NCBI GenBank assembly: GCA_001464695.1
Contig: LNDQ01000098.1
Span: 76,771-140,770 of the forward strand
Length of the DNA stretch: 64,000 nt
Origin: Betaproteobacteria bacterium Ga0077523
GTDB lineage: Bacteria; Pseudomonadota; Gammaproteobacteria; Burkholderiales; Ga0077523
Direction of reading: 5' to 3'
This document shows, in pieces, positions 26,718 to 56,221 of the stretch. The notes beneath the pieces are model-generated. The model was not told the DNA's origin. It saw only the letters and a list, made by a program, of their open reading frames with translations, and did no database searches. The position numbers and the translations under genes were made by a program. Position 1 is the stretch's first letter; each line of letters opens with the position of its first letter.

Positions 26718-27199
26718 CCCAGGAAGTGGCCAAGAACACGGTGGTATCCCTCAGCTACGAACTGCTCGACACGGAAGGCAAGGTGATCGAGAAGACCGAC
26801 CAGCCCATCAGCTATCTGCACGGCGGCTACGACGGGATCTTTCCTCGCGTCGAGGAGGCACTGCACGGCCGCAAGGCCGGCGATAGCTGCTCGATCAAGC
26901 TCGAGCCGGACGATGCGTTCGGCGAGTACGACGCGGAACTGATTCGCACCGAACCACGCAACCTGTTCCCGAAGAACGTGAAAGTCGGGATGCAGTTCGA
27001 AGGTGCCGCGGAGGGCTCGAAGAACGTGATGATCTACACCGTCACCGACATCGCCGAGGACAAGATCGTCGTGGACGCCAATCACCCGCTGGCTGGCAAG
27101 ACCGTCCAGTTCAGCTGCACCATCACCGACGTGCGCGCCGCCACGCAAGAAGAGCTGCATCACGGCCATGTGCACGGGCCGGGCGGCCACCACCACTGA
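26714..27199 (+). CDS. slyD: FKBP-type peptidyl-prolyl isomerase SlyD with a His-rich tail
   Basis: VVSLSYEL, YLHGGYDGIFPRVEEAL, DANHPLAGKT, and the tail HHGHVHGPGGHHH. The ATG overlaps the bcp TGA. Confidence 0.9.
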   Translation: MTQEVAKNTVVSLSYELLDTEGKVIEKTDQPISYLHGGYDGIFPRVEEALHGRKAGDSCSIKLEPDDAFGEYDAELIRTEPRNLFPKNVKVGMQFEGAAEGSKNVMIYTVTDIAEDKIVVDANHPLAGKTVQFSCTITDVRAATQEELHHGHVHGPGGHHH

Positions 27200-27224
27200 G
27201 CGCCGTGGCGACGTTGGACGAGAC

Positions 27225-27254
27225 GGGCTGACTGCGGTCAGCCCGCTTTCTTTC
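27225..27254 (+). terminator. hairpin terminator after slyD (overlaps the 3' end of the convergent permease gene)
   Basis: GGGCTGAC-TGCG-GTCAGCCC followed by GCTTTCTTTCC. Confidence 0.6.
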
Positions 27255-28053
27255 CGGTGAGCACCCGGATCACGGAGTCGAACGCGGCCTCGCCGGAGAA
27301 CCGCACGCACGCGAGGGTCACGGCCGCGATGGTGAAACCGACCAGCACGGTAACGTCAAGTCCCAACGAGAATTCCGGTGCGAAGCGCCCTTCGACGCCC
27401 GTAAGCAGCGCATGTTTGAGCAGGTCCACGCCGTAGGTGTACGGGTTGAGTGTCGCGACGATCCTGAGCCACTGTGGCAGCTGGGTGATCGGGTAGAGCG
27501 ATCCGCTCAGGAAGAACACCGGGAAGATCACGAAGTTCATCAGGGCGGCGAAGTTGTCGAGCGTCTTCGTGAAGGCTGCGGCGAGCATGCCGATGCCCGC
27601 GCAGGCGGCAGGCACCAACAGGAGGCCAAGCACCAGCAACGGGATGTCGATCGCGGCGAAGCGCAGGTAGCCGAGGAGCGCCAGCAACACCAGCAGCATG
27701 AGGGCCTGCAGCAGAGCTGACACGACGGCACTCAGGGTCTTGACGATAACGATCCAGTAGTGCGCGAACGGGGCGATCACCAGCATGCGCATTACGCCGG
27801 ATTCCTTGTCGTAGACCATGGTGAGCGCCGAGAGCATGGCGCCGAACAGCATGGTCATGCCGAGCACCCCGGGTGCCAGGAACTGCTGGTAGGAGAGTCC
27901 TCCCGCGCTGCCCAGCACTGCCCCGAAGCCTGAACCGATCACGAGCAGCCAGATCATGGGGCGCACCATGGAGGCGATGAGACGCGTCCGCTGGCGGCCC
28001 AGTTTCAACACTTCGCGCTGCAAGACGGCAAGGATGGGCCGCATCATGCTCAT
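27238..28053 (-). CDS. ABC-2 type transporter permease
   Basis: 271 aa with six predicted TM segments and the ABC-2 N-terminus MSMMRPILAVLQREVLKLGRQRTRL. The ATG overlaps the ATPase TGA (ATGA). Confidence 0.85.
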   Translation of the reverse strand: MSMMRPILAVLQREVLKLGRQRTRLIASMVRPMIWLLVIGSGFGAVLGSAGGLSYQQFLAPGVLGMTMLFGAMLSALTMVYDKESGVMRMLVIAPFAHYWIVIVKTLSAVVSALLQALMLLVLLALLGYLRFAAIDIPLLVLGLLLVPAACAGIGMLAAAFTKTLDNFAALMNFVIFPVFFLSGSLYPITQLPQWLRIVATLNPYTYGVDLLKHALLTGVEGRFAPEFSLGLDVTVLVGFTIAAVTLACVRFSGEAAFDSVIRVLTGKKAG

Positions 28054-28985
28054 GGGCGCGGTCCTGGAAGATCGGCGCCGGCGTGGACCCACAGGAACAC
28101 GTCGTTCAGGTTGGGCCGGCGCACGCGCATCGCCGTGGCGAGGTCACCCAGTTCTTCCTGCAACCGTGCGAGCGGCGCAGTGTCTTCGTGGGGGTGGAGA
28201 AAGAGGGCCGTGTTGCCTTCCTTCAATCCTCTGCCGAGGGTCGGTTGAGCCTGCGCCAGCAGCGCCTCCACGTCGGCGCTCTCGAACTCGACCACGTGAC
28301 GACCGAGGTTCTCCACCAGGGCGCGCGGGGCACCTTGCGTCACCAGGCGGCCCTTGCGGATGAAGGCCACGCGCTCGCAGGCGTCGGCCTCCTCCAGGTA
28401 GTGCGTGGTCAGCAGCACCGTCATGCGGTTGCGCTGGCGCAGGCCTTCGATGAAACGCCAGATGCGGCGCCGGACCGGAATGTCGAGGCCGATGGTGGGT
28501 TCGTCGAGGAACAGTACGCGTGGTTCGTGGATGACGCCACGGATGATGTCGAGAGCGCGGCGCTGCCCGCCCGAGAGCGAACCGGTCGGTGCATGGAACT
28601 TGTCGGCAATGCCGAAGAGTTCCAGCAATGCCTTTGCCCGCCGCTCGATCTCCCCACCCGTCAGGCCATAGAGCCGGCCCGCGAAGCGCAGGTTCTCCGC
28701 GACCGATAGCGTGCGATCGAGAGCCGACTCCTGGAAGACGAGTCCGATCCGGCCGCGAACGCCGACCGCATCCGCACGGACGTCGAACCCCGCCACGCGA
28801 GCCGACCCCGCGGAGGGGCGCACGAGCGTGGCCAACATGTGGATCGTGGTGGTCTTGCCCGAACCGTTCGGTCCGAGCAGGCCGAAGAACTCGCCTTCGG
28901 CGATCTCGAGATCGAGTCCGTCCACCGCAACGACCTCGCCGTAGCGGCGTTGCAGCCCCTGCGCCTCAATGGCGCAGGCCGTCAT
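28050..28985 (-). CDS. ABC transporter ATP-binding protein (ABC-2/DrrA-like subfamily)
   Basis: Walker A GPNGSGKTT, signature LSGGQRR and Walker B LFLDEPT. I trimmed the start to MTACAIEAQGL at 28985; that ATG overlaps the pqqE TGA. Confidence 0.9.
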   Translation of the reverse strand: MTACAIEAQGLQRRYGEVVAVDGLDLEIAEGEFFGLLGPNGSGKTTTIHMLATLVRPSAGSARVAGFDVRADAVGVRGRIGLVFQESALDRTLSVAENLRFAGRLYGLTGGEIERRAKALLELFGIADKFHAPTGSLSGGQRRALDIIRGVIHEPRVLFLDEPTIGLDIPVRRRIWRFIEGLRQRNRMTVLLTTHYLEEADACERVAFIRKGRLVTQGAPRALVENLGRHVVEFESADVEALLAQAQPTLGRGLKEGNTALFLHPHEDTAPLARLQEELGDLATAMRVRRPNLNDVFLWVHAGADLPGPRP

Positions 28986-30145
28986 GTCACGGGCGTGGTG
29001 TCGGCCTTCTGCGCGGACAGCAGGCGCGAATTGCGATCGTCGCGGAACACGATGGGCTTCACGTTCGGCGGCAGGGTCGGTCGATCGGCCTTCTCCACGG
29101 CCTCGGTGATGAGGTGGTGGAACGGAGAGAGATCGCAGACCGGGTCCGCATTGCGTGCGTCCCCCGTCAGCATGTACGCCTGGCAACGGCAGCCGCCGAA
29201 GTCCTTCTCTTTCTCGGGGCAGGTGCGACACGGTTCCTGCATCCAGGCGTCGCCGCGATAGGCGTTGAAACCGGGCGAGTCGTACCAGATCCACTTGAGG
29301 TCGTGCTCGCGCACATTCGGGAAGGTGAGGCCTGGCAGCATGCGTGCTTCGTGGCAGGGCAGGACCACGCCGTCCGAGGTCACGGTGACGAACAGCGATC
29401 CCCAGCCGTTCATGCAGGCCTTCGGCCGATTGGAATGGTAGTCGGGGACGACGAAGTAGACCTTCATCTTGTCACCCACCCGTTCGCGGAACTTGTTCGT
29501 GACCTCTTCGGCGCGCTGCAGCTGATCGCGGCTCGGCAGCAACTGGTCGCGGTTCTCGAAGGCCCAGGCGTAGTACTGCGTGTTGGCGAGCTCGACGTAC
29601 TCGGCGCCGAGCTGCTCCGCCATCTCCAGGATCTGCTGCGTGTGGTCGATGTTGTGACGGTGCAGCACACAGTTGAACACCATCGGGTAGTCGTACTGCT
29701 GGATCAACTCCGCGACCCGCTTCTTGAGCTCGAAGGTCTTGGTGCTGGAGAGCCAGTCGTTCATCTCTCGCGTGGAATCCTGGAACGAGAGCTGGATGTG
29801 ATCGAGACCGCCTTCCTTGAAGGCGGCGATGCGCTTTTCCGTGAGCCCCACACCGGAGGTGATCAGGTTGGTGTAGTAGCCGAGCTTGCGCGCCTCGGCG
29901 ATGAGGACCTCGAGATCGTCGCGCATGAGCGGCTCGCCCCCGGAGAAGCCGAGCTGGGTACAGCCCAACTCGCGGCCTTCGCGCAGGACCTTGAGCCATT
30001 CATCGGTGTTCAGCTCCGGGCCATAGCTCGTGTAGTCGGTCGGGTTGTAGCAGAACACGCAGTGCAACGGGCACTTGTACGTGATCTCCGCGAGCAGCCA
30101 CAGGGGGTTACCGGGGCGCTTTGGGTCTGATCCAGCCGTTTCCAT
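28982..30145 (-). CDS. pqqE: PQQ biosynthesis radical SAM peptide cyclase PqqE
   Basis: WLLAEITYKCPLHCVFCYNP (CX3CX2C) and a SPASM Cys-rich C-terminus (CRTCPEKEKDFGGCRCQAY). Confidence 0.96.
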   Translation of the reverse strand: METAGSDPKRPGNPLWLLAEITYKCPLHCVFCYNPTDYTSYGPELNTDEWLKVLREGRELGCTQLGFSGGEPLMRDDLEVLIAEARKLGYYTNLITSGVGLTEKRIAAFKEGGLDHIQLSFQDSTREMNDWLSSTKTFELKKRVAELIQQYDYPMVFNCVLHRHNIDHTQQILEMAEQLGAEYVELANTQYYAWAFENRDQLLPSRDQLQRAEEVTNKFRERVGDKMKVYFVVPDYHSNRPKACMNGWGSLFVTVTSDGVVLPCHEARMLPGLTFPNVREHDLKWIWYDSPGFNAYRGDAWMQEPCRTCPEKEKDFGGCRCQAYMLTGDARNADPVCDLSPFHHLITEAVEKADRPTLPPNVKPIVFRDDRNSRLLSAQKADTTPVT

Positions 30146-30407
30146 GAGCTACCTCCAGAAAGTCGACGACGTCGGCCCGCAGGTCGACGCCGGGAAACTG
30201 TTGCTCGAGTTCGGTGATGATGCCGTTCAGGCTGCGCGTGCCGTCCACGCGCTTCATGATCTCTCCGGAACTGCCCGGCAGTTTCACCATGCCTTCGGGG
30301 TAGAGGATCACGTGGCAGTCCTGCGCCGGTTCCCATTGGAACCGGTAGTACTTGGCGATCTCGATGGGGGCATCGTGATCGAAGGCGATTCTTTGCGGCT
30401 GGCCCAT
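30108..30407 (-). CDS. pqqD: PQQ biosynthesis peptide chaperone PqqD
   Basis: 99 aa, YYRFQWEPAQDCHVILYPEGMVKLPGSSGEIM. It overlaps the pqqE start, and its ATG overlaps the pqqC TGA. Confidence 0.93.
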   Translation of the reverse strand: MGQPQRIAFDHDAPIEIAKYYRFQWEPAQDCHVILYPEGMVKLPGSSGEIMKRVDGTRSLNGIITELEQQFPGVDLRADVVDFLEVAHGNGWIRPKAPR

Positions 30408-31126
30408 CAGAGGAGCGTCCGGTCGCCGATGCCATAGTTGATGGCCATCGCGTCGCACATGGTCCACAGCACGTCCAGTTTGAACTGCAGGATGTCGAGC
30501 GCACGCTCCTGCTGCTCGCGCGTCTTGAAGTACTGCAGCGTGACGCGCAGCCCATGCTCGACGTCGCGCCGTGCTTCGGACAGGCGCTTGCGAAAGTACG
30601 CGTAGCCGGCCTGGTCGATCCAGGGATAGTGCTGGGGCCAGTTGGCGAGCCGCTCCTTGTGGATCTCGGGGGCGAACAGTTCGGTGAGGGAAGAGCACAC
30701 CGCTTCCTGCCAGGGGCGTGTGCGGCCGAAGTTGATGTATGCGTCGATCGCGAAGCGCACGCCGGGCAGCACGTGCTTGAGCGACGTGACTTCAGCGCGG
30801 TCGAGGCCCACGGCATCGGCGAGTGTCAGCCACGCCTCGATGCCGCCCTCGTCACCCTGGGTGCCGTCGTGGTCGATGATGCGCTGGATCCACAGGCGGC
30901 GATGCTCGCGGTCCGGCATGTTGGACATGATGCCGGCATCCTTGATCGGGATCGCGATCTGATAGTAGAAGCGGTTGCAGACCCAACCCTGGATCTGCTC
31001 CTTGGTGAGCTTGCCGCTGTTCATCGCCACGTGATACGGGTGGTAGATGTGATAACGGCTGCCCTTGGCGCGCAACTGCGCCTCGAATTCTTCCTTGGTC
31101 CACGGCAGGTTCTCGGCGGCTCCCAT
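30407..31126 (-). CDS. pqqC: pyrroloquinoline-quinone synthase PqqC
   Basis: [32 protein letters not shown] and RIIDHDG. The start is MGAAENL at 31126, behind GGGGGAGAG. Confidence 0.95.
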
Positions 31127-31136
31127 GGCTCTCCCC

Positions 31137-32051
31137 CTACAAGGTGATGTCCATCCCGTCGAACGCAACCTCGATCCGGTGGCGGGTGAGTTCTGCCCGC
31201 TCGGCCGAGTCCTCGTTCAGGATCGGATTGGTGTTGTTGATGTGGATGAGGATCTTGCGGCTCGCGCGCAGCGGATCGAGCACGTCGATCATGCCACCGG
31301 ACCCCGATTGCGGCAGGTGTCCTATGTCGCGTGCTTTCTTCTTCGAGATGCCGAGCCGCACCATCTCGTCGTCGGTCCAGAACGTGCCGTCCACCATCAC
31401 GCAGTCGGCCTGTTCCAGGAACGGTTTCAGGTGCGGCTCGATTTCGCCCAACCCGGGTGCATAGAACACGTTCTTGCCGGTACGAGTGTCGGTGATGCGC
31501 ATCCCGACGTTGTCGCCCTCGTGCGGGTTGTCGCGATGTGGCGAGTAGGGCGGCGCCTTGCTCTTGAGCGGCACCGCGGTGAACGACAGGTGCTCGCCGC
31601 CGGGCACTTCGAAGCGGTTGCCCGATGCGGTGGGCAGCTGGTGCCAGTTCACGCCGCAGTAGTGCCCGAGGATGTTGAACAGCGGATTGCCGGTGGTCAT
31701 GTCCTCGCGGACCATGTCGGTGCAGAACAGTTCGAGCGGCTTGCCTTCGCGCAGCATCAGAAGGCCGGTGGTGTGATCGATCTGGCCGTCCATCAGCACC
31801 ACGGCGCGGATGCCGGTGTCGCGCAGGCCGCGTGCCGGTTGCAGTGCAGGAAAACCGCGGATCTGCTGCAGGATGTCAGGGGAGGCATTGAACAGCACCC
31901 AGTCGACGTCATTGCCGCTCACCGCGATCGACGATTGCGTGCGCGCCTGCGCCCGGACGGTGCCCTTGCGCAGGCCGTCGCAGTTCGGGCAATTGCAATT
32001 CCACTGCGGAAAGCCGCCGCCTGCGGCTGCTCCGAGAACTCGGATTCTCAT
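31137..32051 (-). CDS. pqqB: PQQ biosynthesis protein PqqB (MBL fold)
   Basis: [24 protein letters not shown]... Confidence 0.95.
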
Positions 32052-32103
32052 TCTGGCGTCTCACTTGGCGCTGCTGGGTCCCGGATGGTGAACCCGGGTA
32101 CTG

Positions 32104-32135
32104 AAAAACGAAAGCCCCGTAGACCGGGGCTTTCG
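32104..32135 (-). terminator. hairpin plus T-tract (attenuator/terminator) between pqqA and pqqB
   Basis: On the minus strand: CGAAAGCCCCG-GTCTA-CGGGGCTTTCG followed by TTTTT. Confidence 0.75.
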
Positions 32136-32152
32136 TCGGCCTGCCGCGGAAC

Positions 32153-32224
32153 TTAGCGGTTGGCGATGTACATCGTGACTTCGAAGCCGAAACGCATTTC
32201 GGTGTACTCAGGCTTGTTCCACAT
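32153..32224 (-). CDS. pqqA: PQQ precursor peptide PqqA (copy 1)
   Basis: Not in the ORF track. Hand translation gives [23 protein letters not shown], which contains the E-x3-Y cross-link motif. GGAGG Shine-Dalgarno sequence lies 5 nt upstream. Confidence 0.93.
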
Positions 32225-32432
32225 GCTGACCTCCAGATGATAGAGTTTAGAGTCTTGCGGCACGGATGCCGCCACGGTGAGCGATACCGCGACTCGCACT
32301 TCAGGTCCAGCAGGCGGCGATGGCTCGAATGATCGAGTTGCACCGTCTCCTTCCGGCCACAGTCCCGGTATCTCGGGGAGGTAGTGTCAGGGAAGGCCCA
32401 CGGGTATCCCACACAAAAATCAGCAATGTGGC

Positions 32433-32449
32433 CTCATGAATATCATGAG
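32433..32449. promoter_or_regulatory. perfect 7-3-7 palindrome CTCATGA-ATA-TCATGAG (candidate operator)
   Basis: Lies in the pqqA/tonB divergent region, 24 nt upstream of the tonB ATG. The same arms recur at 37441..37457. Confidence 0.5.
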
Positions 32450-32473
32450 TTTGGACGGTAGGGCTTTGACGGG

Positions 32474-33952
32474 ATGAATGCGCCTGCCTACGCTCGTCCC
32501 ATGGATCGAACCATTTCTGCGACCGCTCGACCCTGGCGCCCCGAAGCCGCACCCGAGTGGTACGGCGACCGGCTGTTCCTGGCAGCGCTTGCGATCTCGA
32601 TCGTCTTCCACACGCTCAACGTGATCGTGCTGCCGAAGCTGTTGAAGTCGGTCAAGTTCGTCGAGAAGCCGCCGCTCGTGGTCGAACTCATCGAGCCGAA
32701 GAAACCGGAGCCGCCGCCGCCGAAGAAGGTTGAACCGCCGCCGAAACCCAAGCCCGTGGCCGCGGTCAAGGTGCCCGAGCCGGTCGCGCGGGTCGAGCCG
32801 AAGCTCGAGGCCCGGCCCGAGTTGAAGCCGCTCCCGATTCCGGAGACCCGGCCGCAAGTGCAGCCGCAGCCGCGTGCGGAAGTGCGCCCGCAGGTGCCGC
32901 AGCAGGTCCGCCCCGAATTGCGGACGGAACCGCGCCTCGAGCCGCAGGCCGCGATCACGCCGGAGCCGATGCCGGACGTGAAGCCGCAGGTGCGCCCGGA
33001 AGTGCGTCCCGAGGTGAAGCCTGAAGTGCGTCCCGACCTCAAGCCGACTGCGCGTCCGGAAGCGCGTGTCGAACCGCGGCTGGAGGCGCGTACGCCGGTG
33101 GCACCTACCCCCGTGCCGGACGTGAAACCGACACCGCGCCCCGAGCCGCGTCAGGAGGTCCGGCCGGAAGTGCGTCCGGACGTGAGGCCTGATCCGCGCC
33201 CGCAATTGCAGACCGCGCCGACGTTGACCGCGCGCACCGAATCGCCCGTGGAAGTGCAGGTGCCGACCGCACCGCCACCGCGTCCTGAAGCGCCGACGGC
33301 ACGCGTAGAGCCGCGGCCCGAAGTGTCCGCCAGCAAGCCCGCACCCGTGGTTGCTGCACCGGCGGCGCCCACGGCGTCGGTCGCGCCGCCGGTCCCCACC
33401 GCCGCGCCCTCGGTGACGCCGCAGCAGACTGCGCCGACGGCGCGGGTGGAACCGCGGCCCGAGGTTCAGGCAGCCAAGCCAGCGCCGGTGGTTGCGGCGC
33501 CCGCGGTGGCTGCCGCGGTGGTGGCTCCACCTCCCCCGACCGCGGCGCCCGCAGTGACTGCCACACCTACGGCACCTGCACCTGCGGCGCCCACGGCCGC
33601 AAGCCAGGGCCCCGCCAAGCCTACGCCTGCTGGGGCTCCGACAACCGCTGCGATCGATACCTCTGCCTTGAAGAACTACGCGCTTCAGATCTCAATGGAG
33701 ATTCGCAAAGACCAATTCTATCCGCGGCGCGCCCGCACCATCGGCTGGCAGGGCACGACAGAGGTGCTGATCCGCATGAGCGCGGATGCCAAGGTGAAAG
33801 AGGTCACCATAGCGAAGTCCAGCGGTTACGACGTGCTCGACCAAGAGGCGCTGGAGAAGGTGCGGCGAGCGAAACACCTGCCGCCAGCGCCCGAGAATTT
33901 CAAGGACCGCGAGTTCACGGTCCTGGTGCCGATCGTCTTCAAGCTCGAATGA
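32474..33952 (+). CDS. tonB: TonB family energy transducer with a very long Pro-rich spacer
   Basis: N-terminal TM segment with the S-x3-H motif (AISIVFH), about 340 aa of (R/K/E)P repeats, and a C-terminal TonB domain (YPRRARTIGWQGTTEVLIRM...SSGYDVLDQEALEKVRRAKHLPPAP). Confidence 0.88.
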   Translation: MNAPAYARPMDRTISATARPWRPEAAPEWYGDRLFLAALAISIVFHTLNVIVLPKLLKSVKFVEKPPLVVELIEPKKPEPPPPKKVEPPPKPKPVAAVKVPEPVARVEPKLEARPELKPLPIPETRPQVQPQPRAEVRPQVPQQVRPELRTEPRLEPQAAITPEPMPDVKPQVRPEVRPEVKPEVRPDLKPTARPEARVEPRLEARTPVAPTPVPDVKPTPRPEPRQEVRPEVRPDVRPDPRPQLQTAPTLTARTESPVEVQVPTAPPPRPEAPTARVEPRPEVSASKPAPVVAAPAAPTASVAPPVPTAAPSVTPQQTAPTARVEPRPEVQAAKPAPVVAAPAVAAAVVAPPPPTAAPAVTATPTAPAPAAPTAASQGPAKPTPAGAPTTAAIDTSALKNYALQISMEIRKDQFYPRRARTIGWQGTTEVLIRMSADAKVKEVTIAKSSGYDVLDQEALEKVRRAKHLPPAPENFKDREFTVLVPIVFKLE

Positions 33953-33983
33953 CTACGCGCCCGCCGGCAGGCGTCGACGCGGC

Positions 33984-34931
33984 GTGAGCACGCTCTATCC
34001 CCCACTCGAGCCCCATCGCTCGGGGCATCTCGACGTGACCGGAGGCCATCGCATCTGGTTCGAGGTGAGCGGCAATCCGTCCGGGCGGCCGGTGCTGTTC
34101 CTGCATGGCGGTCCGGGCAGTTCGACCAAGCCCGACCATCGCCGCTATTTCGACCCCGCGCACTATCGCATCGTGCTGTTCGACCAACGCGGTTGCGGGC
34201 GGAGCCTGCCGGCGGGCGGCATCGACGACAACACCACGGCGCATCTCATCGACGACATCGAGCGCCTGAGGATCGAGCTGGGCGTCGAGCGCTGGCTGCT
34301 GTTCGGCGGTTCGTGGGGCAGCACGCTGGCACTCGCCTATGCGCAGACGCATCCGAAGCGAGTGGATCGCCTGATCCTGCGTGGCATCTTCCTCGCATCG
34401 CACGCTGAACTCGACTGGTATTTCGTCGGGCTGCGGCAGTTCATTCCCGAGGCGTGGGGCGAGTTGTGGAGCGTCGCCCCCGGACTGTCATGGCCGCAAC
34501 TGGTGCGCTGGTACTACTCGAATCTTTACGGATCGCAAGCGAGCGCGGTCGCGGCCCGCTGGAGTGCGTTCGAGACGGCGGTCATGTCGATCGGCGAGAG
34601 CCAGCCGCTCGCACCCCCGGCAAGTGCCGGCGACGGCGTGCTCGCCCGTGCCCGCGTCCAGGTGCACTATCTCGCGCACGACTGTTTTCTGCGCCCCGGA
34701 CAACTGCTCGACGACATGCCGCGTATCGCGCATCTTCCCGCCAGGTTGCTGCACGGCCGACAGGATTTCGTCTGCCCGCCGTCCACCGCCTACGATCTCG
34801 CCCGCCGCTGGCCGCAGGCGCGGCTCACCTACGTGGAGCAGGCGAAGCACGCCTCGTCCCATCCGGCGCTGGAGCGGGAGCTGATCGCGGCTGCCGATGC
34901 CGCGCGCGATATCGAACGCGTTCCGGGGTGA
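33984..34931 (+). CDS. pip: prolyl aminopeptidase (proline iminopeptidase, S33 alpha/beta hydrolase)
   Basis: LFLHGGPGSS, VLFDQRGCGRS and GGSWGSTLALAYA (nucleophile elbow). Confidence 0.9.
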   Translation: MSTLYPPLEPHRSGHLDVTGGHRIWFEVSGNPSGRPVLFLHGGPGSSTKPDHRRYFDPAHYRIVLFDQRGCGRSLPAGGIDDNTTAHLIDDIERLRIELGVERWLLFGGSWGSTLALAYAQTHPKRVDRLILRGIFLASHAELDWYFVGLRQFIPEAWGELWSVAPGLSWPQLVRWYYSNLYGSQASAVAARWSAFETAVMSIGESQPLAPPASAGDGVLARARVQVHYLAHDCFLRPGQLLDDMPRIAHLPARLLHGRQDFVCPPSTAYDLARRWPQARLTYVEQAKHASSHPALERELIAAADAARDIERVPG

Positions 34932-36718
34932 GCGGCGTGAGCCTGCGCTTTCGCATCAATCTGCTCATCACGGTGCTCACGGCGCTCTTCACCGCTGCGT
35001 TGATCCACGTCATGGTCCAGGATGCGCGCCGTTCGATCCGCGAGGAGATGGAGGGTGCGAATCGCGCCACGTTGCAACTGCTGTCCACCGTCATCCGGGA
35101 TGCTCAGTTGAGTGCCAAGGCCGGGCAGGGAAGCGCGTCGCTACTGCTGTTCCTGCGGGACCTGGGGCGCGTGCGGGCTCACGATATCCGCCTGTACGAC
35201 TACGACGATCAGTTGCTGTACACGTCGCCGCCGTCGGCCTACAAGCCTGGCCGTGCCGCGCCCGCGTGGTTCATCAAGCTGGTGCAGCCGGAGATGCCGC
35301 TCATCAACCTGCCGGTCGCGGGCGGCAACGTGACCGTCACGGTCGACGCATCGCGGTCGATCCTCGACGCGTGGGACGATATCAACAACCTCATGCTGCT
35401 GATCCTGGGGTTCGTGGTGGCGGCGAACCTGCTGGTCTTCTTCTTCACGGGGCGTGCGTTGAAGCCGGTCAGCACCGTGCTCGAAGGTCTGAAGCGCATG
35501 GAACGTGGCGAGTTCGATGCGCGCATGCCACGGTTCGCGCTGCCTGAATTCGACGCCATCAGTCATACGTTCAATGGCATGGCTGATGCGCTCGCCGAAT
35601 CCCACGCCGAGAACCGTCGCCTCGCGTTGATCGCGGAACAATCGGGTGACGCAATCCTGATCCAGGATCTCGAAGGCCTCGTCTCGTACTGGAACCCGGC
35701 GGCAGAGCGACTGTTCGGCTGGACAGCGGGGGAGATCCTGGGCCGATCCGCGACGCTGATCGCGCCGCCGGATCGCCTCGACGAGTTCCGGGCCCACACG
35801 GAAACCATCCGCGCACGCGGCGTGGTCGATCACGTGGAGACGCAGCGGCTCGCCCGCGACGGGCGGTTGATCGAAGTCGCGCTGAGCGCGGCACCTCTGG
35901 TGGATCCGGCGAGCAGCACCGTGATCGGCGAGATCTGCTCGCTGCGCGACATCACCGAGGTCAAGCGCGCGCGCGAAGCGGAGGCCGAACTTGCCCAGAA
36001 TCGCCGTCTGACACAGGTGATCCAGAGCCGCCTCGAGGAGGAACGCCATGGCATCGCGCGCGAACTGCACGATGAACTCGGCCAGTGCCTCACGGCGATC
36101 AAGACCATCGGTGCGGTGATCGCCAACCGTACCGAAGGCACGCAACCGGAGATACACGAGAACGCCGAGACCATCGTTTCGGTCACCGAGCGCATGTACG
36201 ATTCGGTCCACGGCATCATCCGCCAGTTGCGGCCGAGCGCGCTGGACCATCTCGGCCTGCGCGAGACACTTGAGGAGGCGGTGGCGAACTGGCGCCGGTT
36301 GAACCCCACCATCCAATGCAGGCTCGATCTGGACGGCGCGCTCGACGCGCTCGGCGAGCGCGTCAACATCACCGTCTATCGCATCGTGCAGGAATGCCTC
36401 ACCAACATCGCGAAGCATGCAGGCGCTAGCGAGGCGTCGGTCAGCGTGAGCCACACGGGCGCGGAGCAGGATGAAAGCCTCGAGATCGTGGCGCGCGACA
36501 ACGGCAAAGGCCTCGTGGCGCGCGATCCGCGGGAAGCCGTGCGCTTCGGGCTGATGGGCATGCGCGAACGCACGGAGGCGCTCGGCGGATCGTTCGTCAT
36601 CGAGAGCGAGGTGGGCAAGGGGGTCACGGTGCGCGTGTCGATTCCGCTGGCCGGTGGTGTCGCCCGCAACGGGCTGAACCACGGAGCGGTGCGGGACGCC
36701 CGGGGCTCGCCGGCATGA
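34928..36718 (+). CDS. NarX/UhpB-type sensor histidine kinase (TM-HAMP-PAS-HisKA_3-HATPase)
   Basis: The H-box RELHDELGQCLTAIK, a PAS segment (AILIQDLEGLVSYWNPAAERLFGW) and an HATPase C-terminus. GTG at 34928 overlaps the pip TGA. ORF 34454..36718 is over-extended. Confidence 0.88.
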   Translation: MSGVSLRFRINLLITVLTALFTAALIHVMVQDARRSIREEMEGANRATLQLLSTVIRDAQLSAKAGQGSASLLLFLRDLGRVRAHDIRLYDYDDQLLYTSPPSAYKPGRAAPAWFIKLVQPEMPLINLPVAGGNVTVTVDASRSILDAWDDINNLMLLILGFVVAANLLVFFFTGRALKPVSTVLEGLKRMERGEFDARMPRFALPEFDAISHTFNGMADALAESHAENRRLALIAEQSGDAILIQDLEGLVSYWNPAAERLFGWTAGEILGRSATLIAPPDRLDEFRAHTETIRARGVVDHVETQRLARDGRLIEVALSAAPLVDPASSTVIGEICSLRDITEVKRAREAEAELAQNRRLTQVIQSRLEEERHGIARELHDELGQCLTAIKTIGAVIANRTEGTQPEIHENAETIVSVTERMYDSVHGIIRQLRPSALDHLGLRETLEEAVANWRRLNPTIQCRLDLDGALDALGERVNITVYRIVQECLTNIAKHAGASEASVSVSHTGAEQDESLEIVARDNGKGLVARDPREAVRFGLMGMRERTEALGGSFVIESEVGKGVTVRVSIPLAGGVARNGLNHGAVRDARGSPA

Positions 36719-37356
36719 GCGGCACGATCAAGGTCATGCTGGCCGACGACCACGCGGTGGTGCGCATGGGCTTCCGGCTCCTGCTGGAGGGCTCGCCCGA
36801 CATCCGTGTCGTGGCCGAAGCGGAAAGCGGCGAGGATGCGGTGCGGCGGTTCGCCGAAGTGAAACCGGACGTGGTCGTGCTCGACCTGTCGATGCCCGGC
36901 ATCGGTGGCCTCGAAGCGCTCTCCCGCATCCTGGCGCGCGAACCGACCGCCAAGGTGCTGGTGCTGACCGCCCACGAAGACGCCATGCACGCGAGGCGGG
37001 TCTTGAAAGCCGGGGCGCTGGGATACCTGTCCAAGCGGAGCGCCGCGGAAGAACTGATCCAGGCGATCCGTCAGGTGTGGGCCGGCCGGACCTTCCTGGA
37101 GCCGGCGATCGCCCAGCAACTCGCCGTGCAGCAGCTCACCGGGGAGCGCAACCCCGTGGACATGCTCTCCGAGAAGGAATTCAAGGTGTTCCTGGCGCTG
37201 GCCCGCGGCCAGAGCGTTGCCGACATTGCCGAGGTCATGTCGCTGAGCCCGCGGACCATCGGAACACATCTTTACAATATCAAACAAAAGCTTGGCGCTT
37301 CCAACTCGGCCGAGCTGGCGATTGTTGCAATGCGGCACGGATTGCTGGAGCCCTGA
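36715..37356 (+). CDS. NarL/FixJ-family response regulator
   Basis: Receiver domain (VMLADDH, VVVLDLSMPG) and LuxR HTH (LSEKEFKVFLALARGQSVADIAEVMSLSPRTIGTHLYNIKQKLG). The ATG overlaps the kinase TGA. Confidence 0.93.
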   Translation: MSGTIKVMLADDHAVVRMGFRLLLEGSPDIRVVAEAESGEDAVRRFAEVKPDVVVLDLSMPGIGGLEALSRILAREPTAKVLVLTAHEDAMHARRVLKAGALGYLSKRSAAEELIQAIRQVWAGRTFLEPAIAQQLAVQQLTGERNPVDMLSEKEFKVFLALARGQSVADIAEVMSLSPRTIGTHLYNIKQKLGASNSAELAIVAMRHGLLEP

Positions 37357-37365
37357 GGTGACATC

Positions 37366-37439
37366 CCCCCGATGGGCCTTCGGCCCTTCCCCCAAGGGGC
37401 GGCCCTCTTGGGGCGGCCCGGCGAGGGCCCGGCGCCACA
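37366..37439 (-). repeat. REP-like element, family A variant
   Basis: The reverse complement starts TGTGGCGCCGGGCC...GGCCGCCCCAAG. It carries nested G/C hairpins (CCCCAAGGGG, GGCCCTCTTGGGGC). Confidence 0.55.
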
Positions 37440-37440
37440 T

Positions 37441-37457
37441 CTCATGAAAATCATGAG
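37441..37457. promoter_or_regulatory. perfect 7-3-7 palindrome CTCATGA-AAA-TCATGAG (candidate operator, or a weak terminator stem)
   Basis: Arms identical to 32433..32449. Lies 131 nt upstream of the second pqqA. Confidence 0.5.
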
Positions 37458-37588
37458 GGGCTTTTACGGGTTTTGCGATGGTTCCTGTTCCTGGGGTGTG
37501 GAGAATAGTCATCAAGCCGTGACTGCGGCTTCCAGTGCACCACCCGAAGAACTGTCCCCAGACGAACCGACCCCTGAAGGAGCTGACC

Positions 37589-37660
37589 ATGTGGAACAAG
37601 CCTGAGTACACCGAAATGCGTTTCGGCTTCGAAGTCACGATGTACATCGCCAACCGCTAA
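37589..37660 (+). CDS. pqqA: PQQ precursor peptide PqqA (copy 2, orphan)
   Basis: Not in the ORF track. It matches copy 1 at 72/72 nt ([23 protein letters not shown]) and has its own GAAGGAG Shine-Dalgarno sequence. The flanks are unrelated to those of copy 1. Confidence 0.9.
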
Positions 37661-37752
37661 TCGCGGCTGGTAGTGCTGCCGCTGCCTCGTCCAGGAGTCA
37701 TGCCTCCGGCACGGCGCGACACAAGAACAAATCGGTGTAGAGGAAGACCCGC

Positions 37753-39933
37753 ATGTTTCACCGCCCCCGGCGCTACGCCGCCCGCGCGTTCACGCGCCCG
37801 CTTGCCGCATCGCTGATCGCATGCACTCTTCCCGTGATCGGATCGGCTCAGGAAACCGCCGACGCGGGGCGCGCGTCGCCGGTGGTGATCACCGGCACCA
37901 GGACGGAGCAGAAGGCGTTCGACCTGCCCATGTCCATCGATCTCGTCGACAAGCAGCGCATCTCCGACGGCCAGCTCGGTGTCAACGCGTCGGAGGCACT
38001 GGTGACGGTGCCTGGCGTCGTGGCCAACAACCGGCAGAACTACGCCCAGGATCTCCAGATATCCATCCGCGGATTCGGGTCTCGATCCACCTTCGGGGTG
38101 CGTGGCATCCGACTCTACGCGGACGGTATTCCGCTCACCATGCCCGACGGGCAGGGTCAGGCGGCAAACATCGATCTCGCGACCGCGAAGAGCATCGAGG
38201 TGTTGCGGGGCCCGTTCTCATCTCTTTACGGCAACTCCTCGGGCGGTGTAATCAGCGTCTTCACCGAGGATGGGCCGCCGGACTTCACCGTGAGCCCGTA
38301 CGGCATGTACGGGTCGTTCGAGACATGGAAGGCGGGCACGAAGGTCGGCGGCACCTCGGGCAATGTGAACTACGTGTTCAACGTCTCGCGTTTCGAAACC
38401 AGCGGCTACCGCGACTGGAGCGCAGCCCAGCGCGACATGATGAACGGCAAGATCACGGTCACGCCGGACGACATCCAGAAGTTCACGCTGGTGGTGAACT
38501 ACCTGAACCAGCCCGATACCCAGGATCCGCTCGGCCTCACGGCGGCGCAGGTGGCGCAGAACCCGCGCCAGGCGGGTTCGGTCACCGCCACCCAGACCGC
38601 GGCGGACTACAAGGTGCGCAAGTCCATCGACAACGCCCAGGTCGGGGGCGTGTACGAGCGCAAGCTGTCCGAGGACGACATGATCCGGGGCCTGGTCTAT
38701 CTCGGTGATCGGCAGGTGACGCAATATCTCGGCGTGACGCCGGGCGCGCAGGCTCCGGCGAGCAGCGGTGGCGGGGTCATCGACCTCGACCGGACCTTCT
38801 GGGGTGTCGATCTGCGCTGGGTACACCGGACCAGCCTCGGTGCCAGGCCGCTGTCGTTCACCTTGGGTACGAACTACGATCGGCAGACCGAGCGGCGGCA
38901 GGGCTACAACAACTTCATCGGCCCGACGCTGGGGGTGCTCGGCGCCTTGCGGCGCGACGAGGACAACACGGTCTACAACTTCGATCAGTACGCCCAGGCC
39001 GAATGGCTGGTCTCCGATCGCTGGATACTGTCGGGCGGTGTGCGCTACAGCAACGTCACCTTCCGCAGTACCGACTACTTCATCATCCCCGGCACCAACC
39101 CGAACGACAGCGGCAGTCGCGACTTCGACCAACTGAGTCCGGTCGCGGCGGCACTGTACAAGCTGACGCCCACGGTGCACGCGTACGCGAGCTTCGGCAG
39201 GGGATTCGAGACGCCGACGTTCGCCGAGCTTGCCTACCAGACCACGACGGCGTCTGGCGCTGGCCTCAACAGCACGATTCAGGCGAACCGCACGCGCAAC
39301 TACGAGATGGGACTGAAGGCGCTCGTGGGACGGGATACGCGCCTCAACGCCGCCATCTTCCGCATCAATGCCGACAACGAGATCACCGTGCAACAGAACG
39401 TGGGTGGACGGTCGGTTTTCCAGAACGCCGGCCCCACGACGCGAACCGGCTTCGAACTGGCGGCGGACGCCCGTTTCAAGGGCGGCTTCTTCGCCTACGG
39501 CGCAGCGACCTACATCGATGCGACTTTCGACTCCTCGTTCACCACCTGCCCGCCCGCGCCGCCGTGCGCCGCGGCGAACGTTCCGGTGGCGGCAGGCAAC
39601 GCGATTCCCGGCATCCCCGGCTACACGCTGTATGGCGAATCGGGCTGGCGGGCGAGCTGGATGGAAACGGCAATCGAAGCGCGACGGTCCGATCGCGTAT
39701 TCGTGAACGACACCAACAGCGAGTTCGCTCAGGCCTATAACGTCTACAACTGGCGCATCAGCTTCCGCCAGGAAGTCGGCAAGGTCCGCTTCACCGAGTT
39801 CTTCCGCATCGACAACTTGCTCGACACCGCATACGTGGGCTCGGTCATCGTCAACGGCGCGAACGGCCGTTTCTACGAACCCTCGCCGGGACGTGCCTTC
39901 TACGTCGGGGCGAGCGCCGCGATCACGTTCTGA
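37753..39933 (+). CDS. TonB-dependent receptor, YncD/PqqU-like (candidate PQQ importer)
   Basis: 726 aa with a signal peptide. Plug motifs NRQNYAQDLQISIRGFGSRSTFGVRGIRLYADGIPLTMPDGQGQ and C-terminus [33 protein letters not shown]. From memory these resemble E. coli YncD; this has not been checked by alignment. Confidence 0.85.
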   Translation: MFHRPRRYAARAFTRPLAASLIACTLPVIGSAQETADAGRASPVVITGTRTEQKAFDLPMSIDLVDKQRISDGQLGVNASEALVTVPGVVANNRQNYAQDLQISIRGFGSRSTFGVRGIRLYADGIPLTMPDGQGQAANIDLATAKSIEVLRGPFSSLYGNSSGGVISVFTEDGPPDFTVSPYGMYGSFETWKAGTKVGGTSGNVNYVFNVSRFETSGYRDWSAAQRDMMNGKITVTPDDIQKFTLVVNYLNQPDTQDPLGLTAAQVAQNPRQAGSVTATQTAADYKVRKSIDNAQVGGVYERKLSEDDMIRGLVYLGDRQVTQYLGVTPGAQAPASSGGGVIDLDRTFWGVDLRWVHRTSLGARPLSFTLGTNYDRQTERRQGYNNFIGPTLGVLGALRRDEDNTVYNFDQYAQAEWLVSDRWILSGGVRYSNVTFRSTDYFIIPGTNPNDSGSRDFDQLSPVAAALYKLTPTVHAYASFGRGFETPTFAELAYQTTTASGAGLNSTIQANRTRNYEMGLKALVGRDTRLNAAIFRINADNEITVQQNVGGRSVFQNAGPTTRTGFELAADARFKGGFFAYGAATYIDATFDSSFTTCPPAPPCAAANVPVAAGNAIPGIPGYTLYGESGWRASWMETAIEARRSDRVFVNDTNSEFAQAYNVYNWRISFRQEVGKVRFTEFFRIDNLLDTAYVGSVIVNGANGRFYEPSPGRAFYVGASAAITF

Positions 39934-40993
39934 AGCGAGGCGTGTTCCCCGCCTCGGCGGGGAACACGATGACGTGCGCAGTGTCGAGCCGGATACCGAT
40001 GGGTGTGCCGGTCGGATGGTCATGATGGCTCGGCACCAGTGCTGTCACGGTCGCGCCGCTGGCGAGTTGCAGCGAATAGAGGATCTCGGCACCGCGGAAG
40101 GCCTTCGACATCACCACGGCCTTGCACGGGGCCGCATCATCGTGCACCACGTCGTCGGGACGCAGCAGCACGTCCAGGGGTTGCCCGTCAGCAGCAGACC
40201 GCGGCAGGTGTACTTCGCCCGTCAGCAGTCCCAGTTCCGTTTCGATGCCAGCGTGGGTACGTCGGCCCGGCACGAACGCGCCCTCGCCGATGAAGTCGGC
40301 TACGAAACGGGTGGCGGGTCGATGGTACAGATCGTAGGGGGCGGCCCATTGCTCGATACGACCCTCGTGTACGACGCCGATGATGTCGGCGAAAGCGAAT
40401 GCTTCGTGCTGGTCGTGTGTCACTAGTATCGCGGTCGTGCCTTCGCGCAGCAGGATCTGCCGCACTTCGCCGGCCAGGCGTTCTCTCAGATCGACGTCGA
40501 GGCTCGAAAACGGCTCATCGAGCAGCACCAGGCGCGGGCGCGGTGCGAGCGCGCGCGCGAGGGCCACGCGCTGTTGCTGGCCGCCGGAAAGTTGGTGCGG
40601 ATAGCGTTGACCGAGTCCGGCGAGGCCGGTGAGTTCGAGCAGCTCGGCAACGCGTGAAGCGCGCGCGACCTTCGCAAGGCCGAACCCGATATTGGCTGCC
40701 ACGTCGAGATGGGGAAACAGGGCGAAGTCCTGGAACACCATGCCCATGTGCCGGTGCTCGGGCGCGACGACGCCGTCACGCGACGAGATCACCACGCCTT
40801 CGAGCGCGATGCTCCCCGCTTCGGGGTTTTCGAAACCGGCGATCAGGCGCAGCAGCGTGGTCTTGCCGCAGCCGGAGGGGCCGAGCAGGCAGGCGATGCC
40901 GCCGGCGTGGAGATCGAAGCTCGCTTCCCGCACCACGGGCCGGGCGCCGTAGCGATGGGTAAGGCCGGCGAGTTGCAGGAGAGGCGGGGACAC
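39923..40993 (-). CDS. fbpC: Fe(3+)/polyamine-type ABC importer ATP-binding protein
   Basis: [31 protein letters not shown] and a TOBE-like C-terminus. GTG start. Confidence 0.85.
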
Positions 40994-45810: not shown

Positions 45811-45829
45811 TATAATGCGAATCATTATC
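45811..45829. promoter_or_regulatory. Fur box overlapping a sigma-70 promoter (TTGACT-N16-TATCAT) for the DUF2325 gene
   Basis: TATAATGCGAATCATTATC matches GATAATGATAATCATTATC at 16 of 19 positions. Confidence 0.75.
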
Positions 45830-45905
45830 ATTACGAAATGCAATGTGATGCGAAGCCAGTGCAAGCCAGCCATCGCGACGACTGCAGGACTTCACGGAGA
45901 TCGAG

Positions 45906-48620: not shown

Positions 48621-48827
48621 ATCAACAATATCGCTACCGAGACCCGAAAAGCCGGCCAGGAGGTCTTTGCCGAGGTCGACGGTGTCCGTCGACAACTTCG
48701 TCTCTGATTTTCTATCTTTTTGAAATTAAACAATGTTTGTTCGGAGCGCGGGTACTCGTGCGCGCCGCGCAACCGCCCCGTGGGCTCTTGGCGTGCCACC
48801 GCTACGCGACAAAGGATTCACGTTGAA

Positions 48828-48846
48828 CGATTGACAATCATTCTCA
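48828..48846. promoter_or_regulatory. Fur box overlapping the bfd promoter (-35 TTGACA)
   Basis: ACGATTGACAATCATTCTC matches the Fur consensus at 13 of 19 positions. TTGACA lies at 48832..48837 and the bfd ATG is 42 nt downstream. Confidence 0.65.
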
Positions 48847-48887
48847 TTCCAGCTTAATGTTCCGTCCACGGAGGAACGACAAGAACC

Positions 48888-49319: not shown

Positions 49320-49419
49320 GGTGACTCGTTTCCGTTCCCATTCTCGTTTCCGGTCATCGGAAACTCCGTCCGTTCGCCACGGGCTGGTCGCCTATACTCG
49401 ACCTCGTCACTGATTCATG

Positions 49420-56180: not shown

Positions 56181-56221
56181 TCCAGCTGAAAGATCGCCAA
56201 TGTATCGATCGGCCGAGAAGT

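Follow-up and report, generated by a model that had tools for sequence, protein, structure and literature searches.

A recurrent Burkholderiales locus linking PQQ synthesis genes with a candidate exporter, a PqqU-type receptor, and a two-component system

How might a bacterium that makes pyrroloquinoline quinone (PQQ) in its cytoplasm keep synthesis in step with the movement of the cofactor across the inner membrane and its recapture at the outer membrane? The question is raised by a 64-kb stretch of DNA (the window, i.e. the whole of the DNA that was analysed; ~66% G+C) on contig LNDQ01000098.1 of Betaproteobacteria bacterium Ga0077523, in which a 12.7-kb block brings together the pqqABCDE genes, an ATP-binding cassette (ABC) ATPase and an ABC-2 type permease, a divergent tonB-pip-kinase-regulator operon, and a second pqqA gene followed by a TonB-dependent receptor. 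On balance, this block is probably a supra-operon for PQQ homeostasis in an uncultured Burkholderiales lineage, serving synthesis, export, recapture, and regulation, with the roles of exporter, tailoring peptidase, and private regulator being predicted from context. An integrated reading as synthesis, export, and re-import had been put forward in a first-pass annotation of the DNA; its arguments from the receptor, the linkage, and the operator hold up, and those from the neighbouring iron genes, from PQQ as a redox shuttle, and from simple co-transcription of the second pqqA with the receptor do not. Secretion and recapture of PQQ is already a published view (PMC12124388; bioRxiv 10.64898/2026.04.27.721047). 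What is new with regard to the accessible literature is the near-obligate coupling of pqqE to the ABC-2 pair, the operator with its two-component system, the cassette containing the second pqqA, and the linked TonB and prolyl aminopeptidase (Pip).

Linked genes and a PqqU-type receptor

The gene map is based on a listing of open reading frames (ORFs) with their translations and on Pfam and NCBIfam scans, and reads as follows.

27238-28053, minus strand: ABC-2 type permease, 271 aa (Pfam ABC2_membrane, PF01061, 109 bits)
28050-28985, minus strand: ABC ATPase, 311 aa (Pfam ABC_tran, PF00005, 103 bits)
28982-30145, minus strand: pqqE, radical SAM/SPASM (TIGR02109, 521 bits, cut-off 381)
30108-30407, minus strand: pqqD (NF002535, 115 bits, cut-off 101)
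30407-31126, minus strand: pqqC (TIGR02111, 367 bits, cut-off 240)
31137-32051, minus strand: pqqB (TIGR02108, 434 bits, cut-off 245)
32153-32224, minus strand: pqqA1, 23-aa precursor (TIGR02107, 49 bits, cut-off 20)
32474 (or 32501)-33952, plus strand: tonB, long ORF of 492 aa (Pfam TonB_C, 66 bits)
33984-34931, plus strand: pip, S33 prolyl aminopeptidase (TIGR01249, 291 bits, cut-off 260)
34928-36718, plus strand: sensor histidine kinase, 596 aa (Pfam)
36715-37356, plus strand: NarL/FixJ-type response regulator with REC and GerE domains, candidate factor for binding the palindromic box described below (Pfam)
37589-37660, plus strand: pqqA2, the same as pqqA1 at 72/72 nt
37753-39933, plus strand: pqqU-type TonB-dependent transporter, 726 aa, with signal peptide and TonB box (NF041535, 628 bits)

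PqqA, B, C, D, and E each score above the NCBIfam equivalog cut-off and their genes stand in the canonical order A-B-C-D-E; by family membership, pqqA1BCDE would make PQQ in the cytoplasm. No M16 (PqqF/PqqG-type) protease was found among the called genes of the window, i.e. there is no linked pqqF/G. The elements claimed in the first-pass annotation, namely pqqABCDE with the ABC-2 genes, the divergent tonB-pip-kinase-regulator operon, and the pqqA2-receptor pair, are all present at these positions, and the overlapping stop and start codons that it described from pip onward are confirmed as a GTGA junction at pip/kinase and an ATGA junction at kinase/regulator; ATGA overlaps also join pqqE to the ATPase gene and the ATPase gene to the permease gene.

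A scan with a PqqU alignment, using one genome per species, provided 80 loci whose neighbours were identified by tblastn with the window proteins and by a pattern search for PqqA. The block recurs in at least seven other Burkholderiales assemblies. The full order, permease-ATPase-pqqEDCB-pqqA1 divergent from tonB-pip-kinase-regulator-pqqA2-receptor, is present in L003, L004, L027, L165, and L167, with L165 (ERZ26867466 ctg28270, a 5.29-Mb contig that is possibly circular) and L167 having been found through the permease; L042 has the same order minus the ABC pair, and L074 is a truncated contig. Relatives thus repeat the pairing of pqqA with the receptor as well as the divergent arrangement as a whole, and the divergence of tonB from pqqA1 is conserved. 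Identity to the window in L003, L004, and L027 is only 46-53% for the receptor, 58-80% for the Pqq enzymes, and ~83% for the regulator. A further 15 metagenome loci have kinase-pip-tonB divergent from pqqA-E-ABC2. Other arrangements include pqqBCDE-ATPase-permease and then the receptor in Pelomicrobium sp. G1 (L024, NZ_JBQACR010000006.1), with a box ahead of pqqBCDE-ABC2 and another ahead of pqqU, the regulator divergent from pqqABCDE-receptor in L016, and tonB-kinase-regulator-receptor in Sulfuritalea and a Rhodocyclales genome (L006, L009, L010); in Sulfuritalea the locus has no pqq genes, and its order is tonB-kinase-regulator-box-pqqU. Of the 80 PqqU loci, only about nine have pqq genes at a distance of 10 kb or less from the receptor, which agrees with the description of pqqU-pqq synteny as an exception, found in four Burkholderiales genomes, that accompanies figure S11 of Munder et al. 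(2025, PMC12124388). That figure likewise places pqqU beside the pqq operon in Burkholderiales, and this is read there as possible co-regulation. The text and legend concerned speak only of synteny in the same orientation, however, and a second pqqA, an ABC pair, a TonB, pip, a two-component system, and an operator go unmentioned in them.

The resemblance of the receptor to Escherichia coli YncD, renamed PqqU, that had been noticed in the first-pass annotation is supported by both sequence alignment and comparison of structure models. The receptor scores 628 bits against the PqqU family (NF041535) versus 161 bits for the next family, i.e. it clusters with PqqU and away from other TonB-dependent receptor families. 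The score is below the equivalog cut-off of 1200 bits, a cut-off that appears to be narrow, as the Sulfuritalea homologue (L006) also fails it with 726 bits. The alignment with E. coli YncD/PqqU (6v81/9c4o) runs end to end (E 3e-157), the next PDB sequence having an E-value of 1.7e-18. An AlphaFold2 model of the receptor (pLDDT 79, pTM 0.81) had as its top PDB matches in Foldseek the cryo-electron microscopy structure of PqqU with PQQ (9c4o) and YncD (6v81), with E 2e-69, TM-scores of 0.86/0.94, and 42% identity; the next structural match was FecA (E 2e-36, 18% identity).

The PqqU signature comprises an aromatic residue at Y99 (Y or F/W), R304, and R365, with K274 and R536 being semi-conserved (Munder et al. 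2025, PMC12124388). In a HMMER alignment the residues at Y99/R304/R365/K274/R536 are F114/R320/R382/K290/R553, so that all five PQQ contacts are kept, the Phe in place of Y99 being a substitution that Munder et al. accept, and these five residues are invariant in 30 homologues of 50-95% identity. By family membership, therefore, the protein is a PqqU-type transporter that would capture PQQ at the outer membrane, powered by the TonB of the locus, which has a membrane anchor with the SxxxH motif (AISIVFHTL) and Pro-rich spacer and repeats in addition to its TonB_C domain. The likeness to E. coli PqqU (YncD; PDB 6V81, 9C4O; Hantke & Friz 2022; Munder et al. 2025) extends over the full length and the fold. 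The setting differs, as E. coli makes no PQQ and has pqqU as a lone gene, whereas here the gene belongs to a producer and is accompanied by a pqqA copy, a TonB, a two-component system, and a common operator. An importer wired into the biosynthetic locus would be evidence at the genome level that producers devote resources to regaining the cofactor they make, and bears on the view of PQQ as a public good in the soil, sediment, and water communities from which such loci are repeatedly recovered.

It might be argued that the receptor imports other cargo, perhaps an iron chelate or PQQ complexed with a metal, and that the locus is metallophore-like. Iron-uptake genes begin directly after the receptor, with a downstream island comprising an FbpABC-like transporter, an FTR1-cytochrome c fusion, a receptor, Bfd, and bacterioferritin, and metal co-transport has been proposed for PqqU variants with Glu at K274 (Munder et al. 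2025, PMC12124388). The residue here is Lys (K290), the E. coli state and not the Glu variant, the other PQQ contacts are kept, and siderophore-receptor families reach at most 161 bits compared with 628 for PqqU. Moreover, Fur-like boxes occur only inside the island, at 45811-45835 and 48827-48851 (16/19 and 13/19 matches, with a second, overlapping register at each), and none is found in the PQQ locus; the island adjoins the locus in L042 and not in L003, L004, or L027. A metallophore-like role is therefore highly improbable. Fur control of the PQQ locus was rejected on the confinement of these boxes to the island, as was the island as a functional context for PQQ, its adjacency being common to L042 only. 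The placement beside the iron island that had been cited in support of the integrated reading consequently loses its force, and nothing supports a role of PQQ as a redox shuttle.

A transporter pair following pqqE

PQQ is the one product of the pathway known to have to cross the inner membrane, and the two genes after pqqE may account for this step. A scan of metagenomes with a permease alignment returned the best 80 loci, with homologues of 59-89% identity, and thus covers relatives down to about 59%. Among the matches listed, the ATPase gene precedes the permease gene in 67/67 loci with upstream DNA, and pqqE precedes the ATPase gene in 54 of the 55 loci with upstream DNA, so the pqqE-ABC2 linkage described for the window does recur in relatives. 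L127 is the single locus where pqqE was not detected upstream of the pair. The linkage to pqqE persists in loci without the divergent tonB-pip module (L148, L152, L159, L024), one of which is that of the isolate Pelomicrobium sp. G1 (L024). In the window the operon ends at the permease gene, which is followed by a hairpin and then a convergent gene, and relatives have unrelated genes at that place.

A half-size ABC2_membrane permease with a separate ATPase, and with no gene for a substrate-binding protein adjacent to the pair, corresponds to the layout of an ABC-2 (type V) exporter. The nearest solved relatives of the ATPase are ABCA-type nucleotide-binding domains, and the permease only weakly resembles a bacterial transport permease of solved structure. 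The best NCBIfam match of the ATPase is drrA (279 bits, cut-off 312), with PQQ_ABC_ATP at 209 (cut-off 302), and the permease is below the subfamily cut-offs of drrB and PedC; every score for the curated subfamilies drrA/drrB, nodI/nodJ, and PedA2/PedC is thus below its cut-off. The best-scoring named families, i.e. the PedA1A2BC-type system of PQQ-dependent alcohol dehydrogenase clusters (TIGR03864/TIGR03861) and DrrAB/NodIJ, share the ABC-2 superfamily with the pair and differ from it at the family level (209 versus 302, 158 versus 241, 279 versus 312, and 159 versus 223 bits). The Ped system differs further in having a periplasmic binding protein and in being implicated in lanthanide uptake. 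Membership of the pair in the Ped lanthanide system or in DrrAB was rejected on these scores.

Taken together, the translational coupling to pqqE, the lack of an adjacent binding-protein gene, and the ABCA-like, exporter-type domains suggest that the pair is a pathway-dedicated candidate exporter for which PQQ would be the most economical substrate; its most likely task would be to carry PQQ, or a late intermediate, out of the cytoplasm into the periplasm. Alternatively, the pair might, as a form of self-protection, export something else that arises in the pathway (a reactive quinone intermediate, for example, or fragments of the leader peptide), or serve an unrelated function in the envelope. 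The drug- and lipid-type exporters among its best family matches (drrA/drrB, NodIJ, ABCA nucleotide-binding domains) would suit this alternative, as would L042, which keeps everything else, and the fact that most PQQ producers manage without such a pair. It has to contend, however, with the linkage and translational coupling to pqqE, which argue for a pathway-specific role, with the retention of that linkage where the tonB-pip module is absent, and with the need of PQQ itself to cross the inner membrane. We regard a substrate other than PQQ as possible, although we lean away from it.

An ABC exporter for PQQ has been postulated and not identified, with an unlinked candidate having come from a transposon screen in M. 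extorquens (PMC7391723), and phrase searches of the literature for a PQQ exporter gave nothing beyond that candidate. The hypothesis for the M. extorquens protein, META1p2359, is the same as that offered here, i.e. an ABC exporter without binding protein that moves PQQ to the periplasm (PMC7391723). It differs in having been found by phenotype, in being unlinked to pqq genes, and in being described as a fused ATPase-permease. A transporter placed directly after pqqE with such regularity would be a sharper and directly testable candidate for the PQQ exporter.

A conserved palindrome, the two-component system, and two pqqA copies

The intergenic footprints come from an alignment of six regulator-to-receptor spacers (the pqqA2 side) and another of 24 pqqA1-tonB spacers. 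Together with folding of the RNA, they define the following elements.

32103-32137, minus strand: intrinsic terminator/attenuator hairpin between pqqA1 and pqqB, GAAAGCCCC-loop-GGGGCUUUCGUUUUU (fold -26 kcal/mol, z -2.9)
32383-32388, minus strand: -10-like hexamer GACACT, predicted pqqA1 promoter (from the footprint)
32411-32425, minus strand: putative degenerate second box TGCTGATTTTTGTGT (from the footprint)
32433-32449, no strand assigned: box 1 CTCATGAATATCATGAG, in the control region common to pqqA1 and tonB (conserved in orthologous intergenic regions)
32466-32494, plus strand: predicted tonB promoter, -35 TTGACG, 17-nt spacer, -10 TACGCT (from the footprint)
37441-37457, no strand assigned: box CTCATGAAAATCATGAG, 5' of pqqA2 (main conserved non-coding block in six aligned loci)
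37501-37506, plus strand: putative -10-like hexamer GAGAAT, 43 nt past the box (from the footprint)
37676-37677, plus strand: junction without 45 nt that are present in a public contig, the missing terminator being GAAAAAGGCTGCCTCGGCAGCCTTTTTTGTTGTCTGACTGGGGAT (fold -35 kcal/mol, z -4.0)

The same palindrome had been reported in front of the tonB operon and the pqqA2-receptor pair. CTCATGA-N3-TCATGAG occurs exactly twice in the 64 kb, at these two places, where 0.16 matches would be expected even with two mismatches allowed, and its distribution in relatives is that of a phylogenetically conserved operator. Fifteen of the 80 PqqU loci, spanning Burkholderiales, Sulfuritalea/Rhodocyclales, Pelomicrobium, and Methylophilaceae, have the core TCATGA-N3-TCATGA, exact or with one mismatch, 70-350 nt 5' of pqqA, tonB, or the receptor gene, and the box also lies 5' of pqqA in most metagenome loci whose DNA reaches there. 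The consensus of 55 distinct sites is aaaCTCATGAAAATCATGAG. In both footprint alignments the box is the dominant conserved non-coding block: among the six spacers it alone is strongly conserved 5' of pqqA2, with a weaker TTTCAG-GGTTT-like stretch downstream of it, and on the pqqA1 side the degenerate second box, 8 nt from box 1, is seen as the block TTG(G/C)TGATTTT in 23 of the 24 aligned loci. A literature search for the box sequence yielded no relevant paper, and an Rfam scan of 27000-40200 with E up to 1 gave no match, so there is no known riboswitch or small RNA in the control regions. A box with one or two mismatches inside the permease gene (27528-27542, at the same place in ~40 loci) was rejected as an operator, since the codon string for a conserved I-M-N-F-V-I produces it as a coding artefact.

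Spacing to the conserved hexamers suggests where the promoters may lie. The pqqA1 -10-like block (G/C)A(G/C)A(A/C)T has a fixed spacing in the 24 loci, 44 nt from box 1 in the window. On the pqqA2 side the corresponding distance is 43 nt in the window, and CAGAAT, CATACT, or GAGAAT lies 43-45 nt past the box in four of the five other loci (not in L042). The near-equal distances suggest that both pqqA promoters of the window would be built alike, the box centres lying near -65 and -42; box 1 would be at about -65 and the second copy at about -42 from the predicted pqqA1 start, and box 1 at about -61 from the predicted leaderless tonB start. The last prediction follows from the conservation in related loci of TACGCT, then 6 nt, then ATG (32501 in the window), a promoter position that, together with homology, indicates that tonB probably starts at 32501, i.e. 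27 nt downstream of the 32474 start of the ORF first proposed; the ORF itself is present.

Which factor would read the box? Across the 80 PqqU loci the box and an adjacent orthologue of the regulator occur together in nine, the box only in six, the regulator only in one, and neither in 64 (Fisher p = 2e-7), and the orthologues that adjoin the box and pqqU in other lineages are 63-88% identical to the regulator of the window. Sulfuritalea, Rhodocyclales, Pelomicrobium, L046, L048, and Methylophilaceae moreover have the box directly 5' of pqqU without any pqqA. With its 6-3-6 spacing, the inverted repeat is well matched to a GerE-type dimer. The kinase has a transmembrane segment, a periplasmic domain of ~120 aa, a second transmembrane segment, and HAMP, PAS, HisKA_3, and HATPase domains (Pfam), and the pairing of HisKA_3 and HATPase with a REC and GerE regulator identifies a NarL/FixJ-type system. 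The label 'NarX-type' given to the kinase in the first-pass annotation is accordingly right at the class level (HisKA_3), whereas the best named NCBIfam match is UhpB, over the C-terminal part only, and neither kinase nor regulator reaches the cut-off of any named equivalog. The periplasmic domain resembles LapD_MoxY_N weakly (20.7 bits, cut-off 25), a sub-threshold match from which no ligand of the kinase can be named.

In Pseudomonas, the LuxR-type regulator AgmR activates pqq genes (PMC12997753). The Pseudomonas system, consisting of pqqFABCDE(G/H), PA2289 (PqqU), and AgmR/ErbR, resembles the present one in that a producer re-imports PQQ via PqqU and a NarL/LuxR-type regulator activates the pqq genes; it differs in that the genes are dispersed, pqqU is reported to be constitutive, PqqF is present, and no ABC pair is linked to pqqE.

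As to mechanism, synteny and footprints suggest that the HisKA_3 kinase and the NarL-type regulator control three promoters via CTCATGA-AAA-TCATGAG. Box 1 and its degenerate copy would drive pqqA1BCDE-ABC2 in one direction and an autoregulated tonB-pip-kinase-regulator operon in the other, and a second box-promoter-pqqA-terminator cassette would precede pqqU, so that precursor supply, synthesis, and recapture would rise together, with the level of pqqU being set by terminator read-through or by a weak local promoter. A conserved operator with a two-component system would offer a handle on PQQ control in betaproteobacteria and could allow PQQ regulons to be predicted from sequence.

It is also conceivable that these genes are neighbours without joint regulation, the palindrome being structural or read by a factor encoded elsewhere, the two-component system sensing alcohol, a lanthanide, or oxygen (PAS), and pqqU being transcribed from its own constitutive promoter. 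Such an arrangement would be in keeping with the terminator between pqqA2 and pqqU, with the constitutive pqqU of Pseudomonas aeruginosa, with four box loci (L024, L057, L062, L075) that have no regulator within 10 kb, and with the PAS and weakly MoxY-like periplasmic domains of the kinase. We nevertheless judge it unlikely, given the strong association of the box with the adjacent regulator orthologue, the box directly 5' of pqqU in lineages without pqqA at that site, and the fit of the inverted repeat to a GerE-type dimer.

Two Sulfuritalea genomes contain another exact box, GAATCATGAAAATCATGACGA (L006 18843-18857; L010 10413-10427), ~100 nt 5' of a different TonB-dependent receptor, of 784 aa and only 24% identical to the PqqU type, and the regulon may therefore include a second import route.

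The two pqqA copies of the window encode identical peptides and are identical over 72/72 nt of coding sequence, while their flanks fail to align. The identity had been remarked upon earlier, and it stands; its cause, however, appears to be a lineage-specific gene conversion and not a fresh duplication. In most genomes pqqA1 is separated from pqqA2 by 7-12 differences in 72 nt, with only 0-5 amino-acid changes, and near-identity is confined to the window and L165 (71/72 nt), from which it would follow that pqqA2 is an old, selectively maintained paralogue that has been overwritten by gene conversion here. A separate feature of pqqA1 is that its coding sequence is 69-71/72 nt identical across L003, L004, L027, and L165, where the neighbouring Pqq enzymes are only 58-80% identical as proteins; such near-frozen synonymous sites suggest a constraint at the level of RNA or translation.

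The spacer between pqqA2 and the receptor requires a correction. The distance from the pqqA2 stop to the receptor ATG is indeed 92 nt in the window, as had been stated, but the natural spacer appears to be 137 nt with a terminator inside. The window is 100% identical to the JGI metagenome contig AADWTP_10000301 (112,934 bp), compared over 828-21826 and 27798-61086, except for 45 nt that are absent at 37676/37677. These 45 nt are present in the public contig and in an independent ENA contig (L001 9880-9924; L002 494-538), and they form a strong intrinsic terminator directly 3' of pqqA2, whereas the 92-nt spacer of the window has no significant structure on folding. The gap could reflect natural variation, a difference in assembly, or editing. 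An equivalent hairpin 3' of pqqA2 is conserved in L003, L004, L027, and L042, and that 3' of pqqA1 is conserved, with varying loops, in 24/24 aligned loci. Simple co-transcription of pqqA2 and the receptor is consequently unlikely, and the natural unit is a box-promoter-pqqA-terminator cassette that occurs once 5' of pqqB and once 5' of pqqU. With such a unit the precursor transcript can far exceed that of the genes behind it, and a pqqA-terminator layout is the usual route to a high transcript level for a precursor that is consumed stoichiometrically.

Should pqqA2 then be seen as a functionless relic of the promoter duplication that brought the box 5' of pqqU? Some lineages do have the box directly 5' of pqqU without pqqA, and the terminator 3' of pqqA2 would suit a relic as well. 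The ORF is intact in 8/8 genomes, however, with the Glu-X3-Tyr core kept, and the 7-12 nt changes seen in most of these comparisons entail few changes of amino acid; the gene has also been homogenised with pqqA1 in the window and L165. Moreover, because PqqA is consumed stoichiometrically, additional copies are useful, and multiple pqqA copies occur in methylotrophs. In a Burkholderiales metagenome-assembled genome (L074, 4255-4420) two tandem pqqA genes, differing at 2 residues from one another, are found between the box and the PqqU gene, a re-duplication hard to reconcile with a relic. The relic explanation is on these grounds quite improbable, and a maintained second copy is preferred.

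Precursor processing, overall weighing, and neighbouring genes

With no pqqF/G linked, the prolyl aminopeptidase becomes a candidate for PqqA trimming. Its homology to the Serratia prolyl aminopeptidase 1qtr (E 7.5e-87) and its GGSWG nucleophile motif (GxSxG) mark Pip, to judge from its sequence, as a bona fide S33 prolyl aminopeptidase, and having no signal peptide it is predicted to be cytoplasmic. The gene lies beside pqq genes in 19 metagenome loci and is absent from the Sulfuritalea uptake-only module, which ties it to synthesis and not to uptake. Positions 4-5 of PqqA are a conserved Lys-Pro, and an N-terminal Pro blocks general aminopeptidases. It may be speculated that Pip removes the conserved Pro5, which would otherwise block exopeptidase trimming of PqqA. 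A comparable idea exists for the M. extorquens aminopeptidase META1p3908, for which processing of the peptide precursor was hypothesised (Roszczenko-Jasinska et al. 2020, PMC7391723), although that protein was found by phenotype and is unlinked to pqq genes. Pseudomonas similarly has a serine peptidase of the alpha/beta-hydrolase fold (prolyl oligopeptidase family) after pqqE, which belongs to S9 and not, as here, to S33.

Several observations weigh against the reading of the block as a homeostasis unit. As the ATPase and permease are below all curated cut-offs, their substrate class is unreadable from homology. L042 (1-2334) keeps the whole PQQ/TonB/two-component/PqqU layout and the iron island with no ABC pair after pqqE, and many PQQ producers have no such transporter, so a dedicated exporter is not universally required. 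A consensus sigma-70 scan detected no promoter in either control region (a terminator scan also missed the pqqA1 hairpin), and the promoter assignments therefore derive from the conserved blocks. Six box loci have no regulator gene nearby, two of these having almost no upstream DNA. Because the natural contig and its relatives have a strong terminator separating pqqA2 from pqqU, co-expression of the two is not guaranteed, and pqqU of P. aeruginosa is reported to be constitutive (bioRxiv 10.64898/2026.04.27.721047). Pro5 is far from the Glu and Tyr that become PQQ, so that Pip could be a mere housekeeping enzyme, and no quinoprotein gene was found in the 64-kb window. It would accordingly be a tentative step, and one we hold to be doubtful, to claim that the ABC-2 pair is the long-sought inner-membrane exporter of PQQ and that the kinase, regulator, and box form a dedicated betaproteobacterial circuit for PQQ homeostasis that responds to the state of the cofactor in the periplasm by adjusting, in concert, the supply of precursor, synthesis, export, the energising of TonB, and recapture at the outer membrane.

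The remaining features concern the surroundings of the locus, which has flagellar genes upstream. Within the iron island, the gene at 43735-45663, whose 642-aa product has cytochrome c domains fused to an FTR1 iron permease, adjoins the FbpABC-like transporter; the two Fur-like sites lie between this gene and DUF2325, and 5' of the second receptor and bfd, respectively. The spacer between the bfd-like and bacterioferritin genes contains a 79-nt unit repeated 3.1 times in tandem (49077-49324, 95% match). Further downstream, a nickel-related cluster (52254-57185) comprises a gene with the NikR C-terminal domain (52254-52703, minus strand), a third TonB-dependent receptor (52916-55033), and a NicO-family permease (56307-57185).

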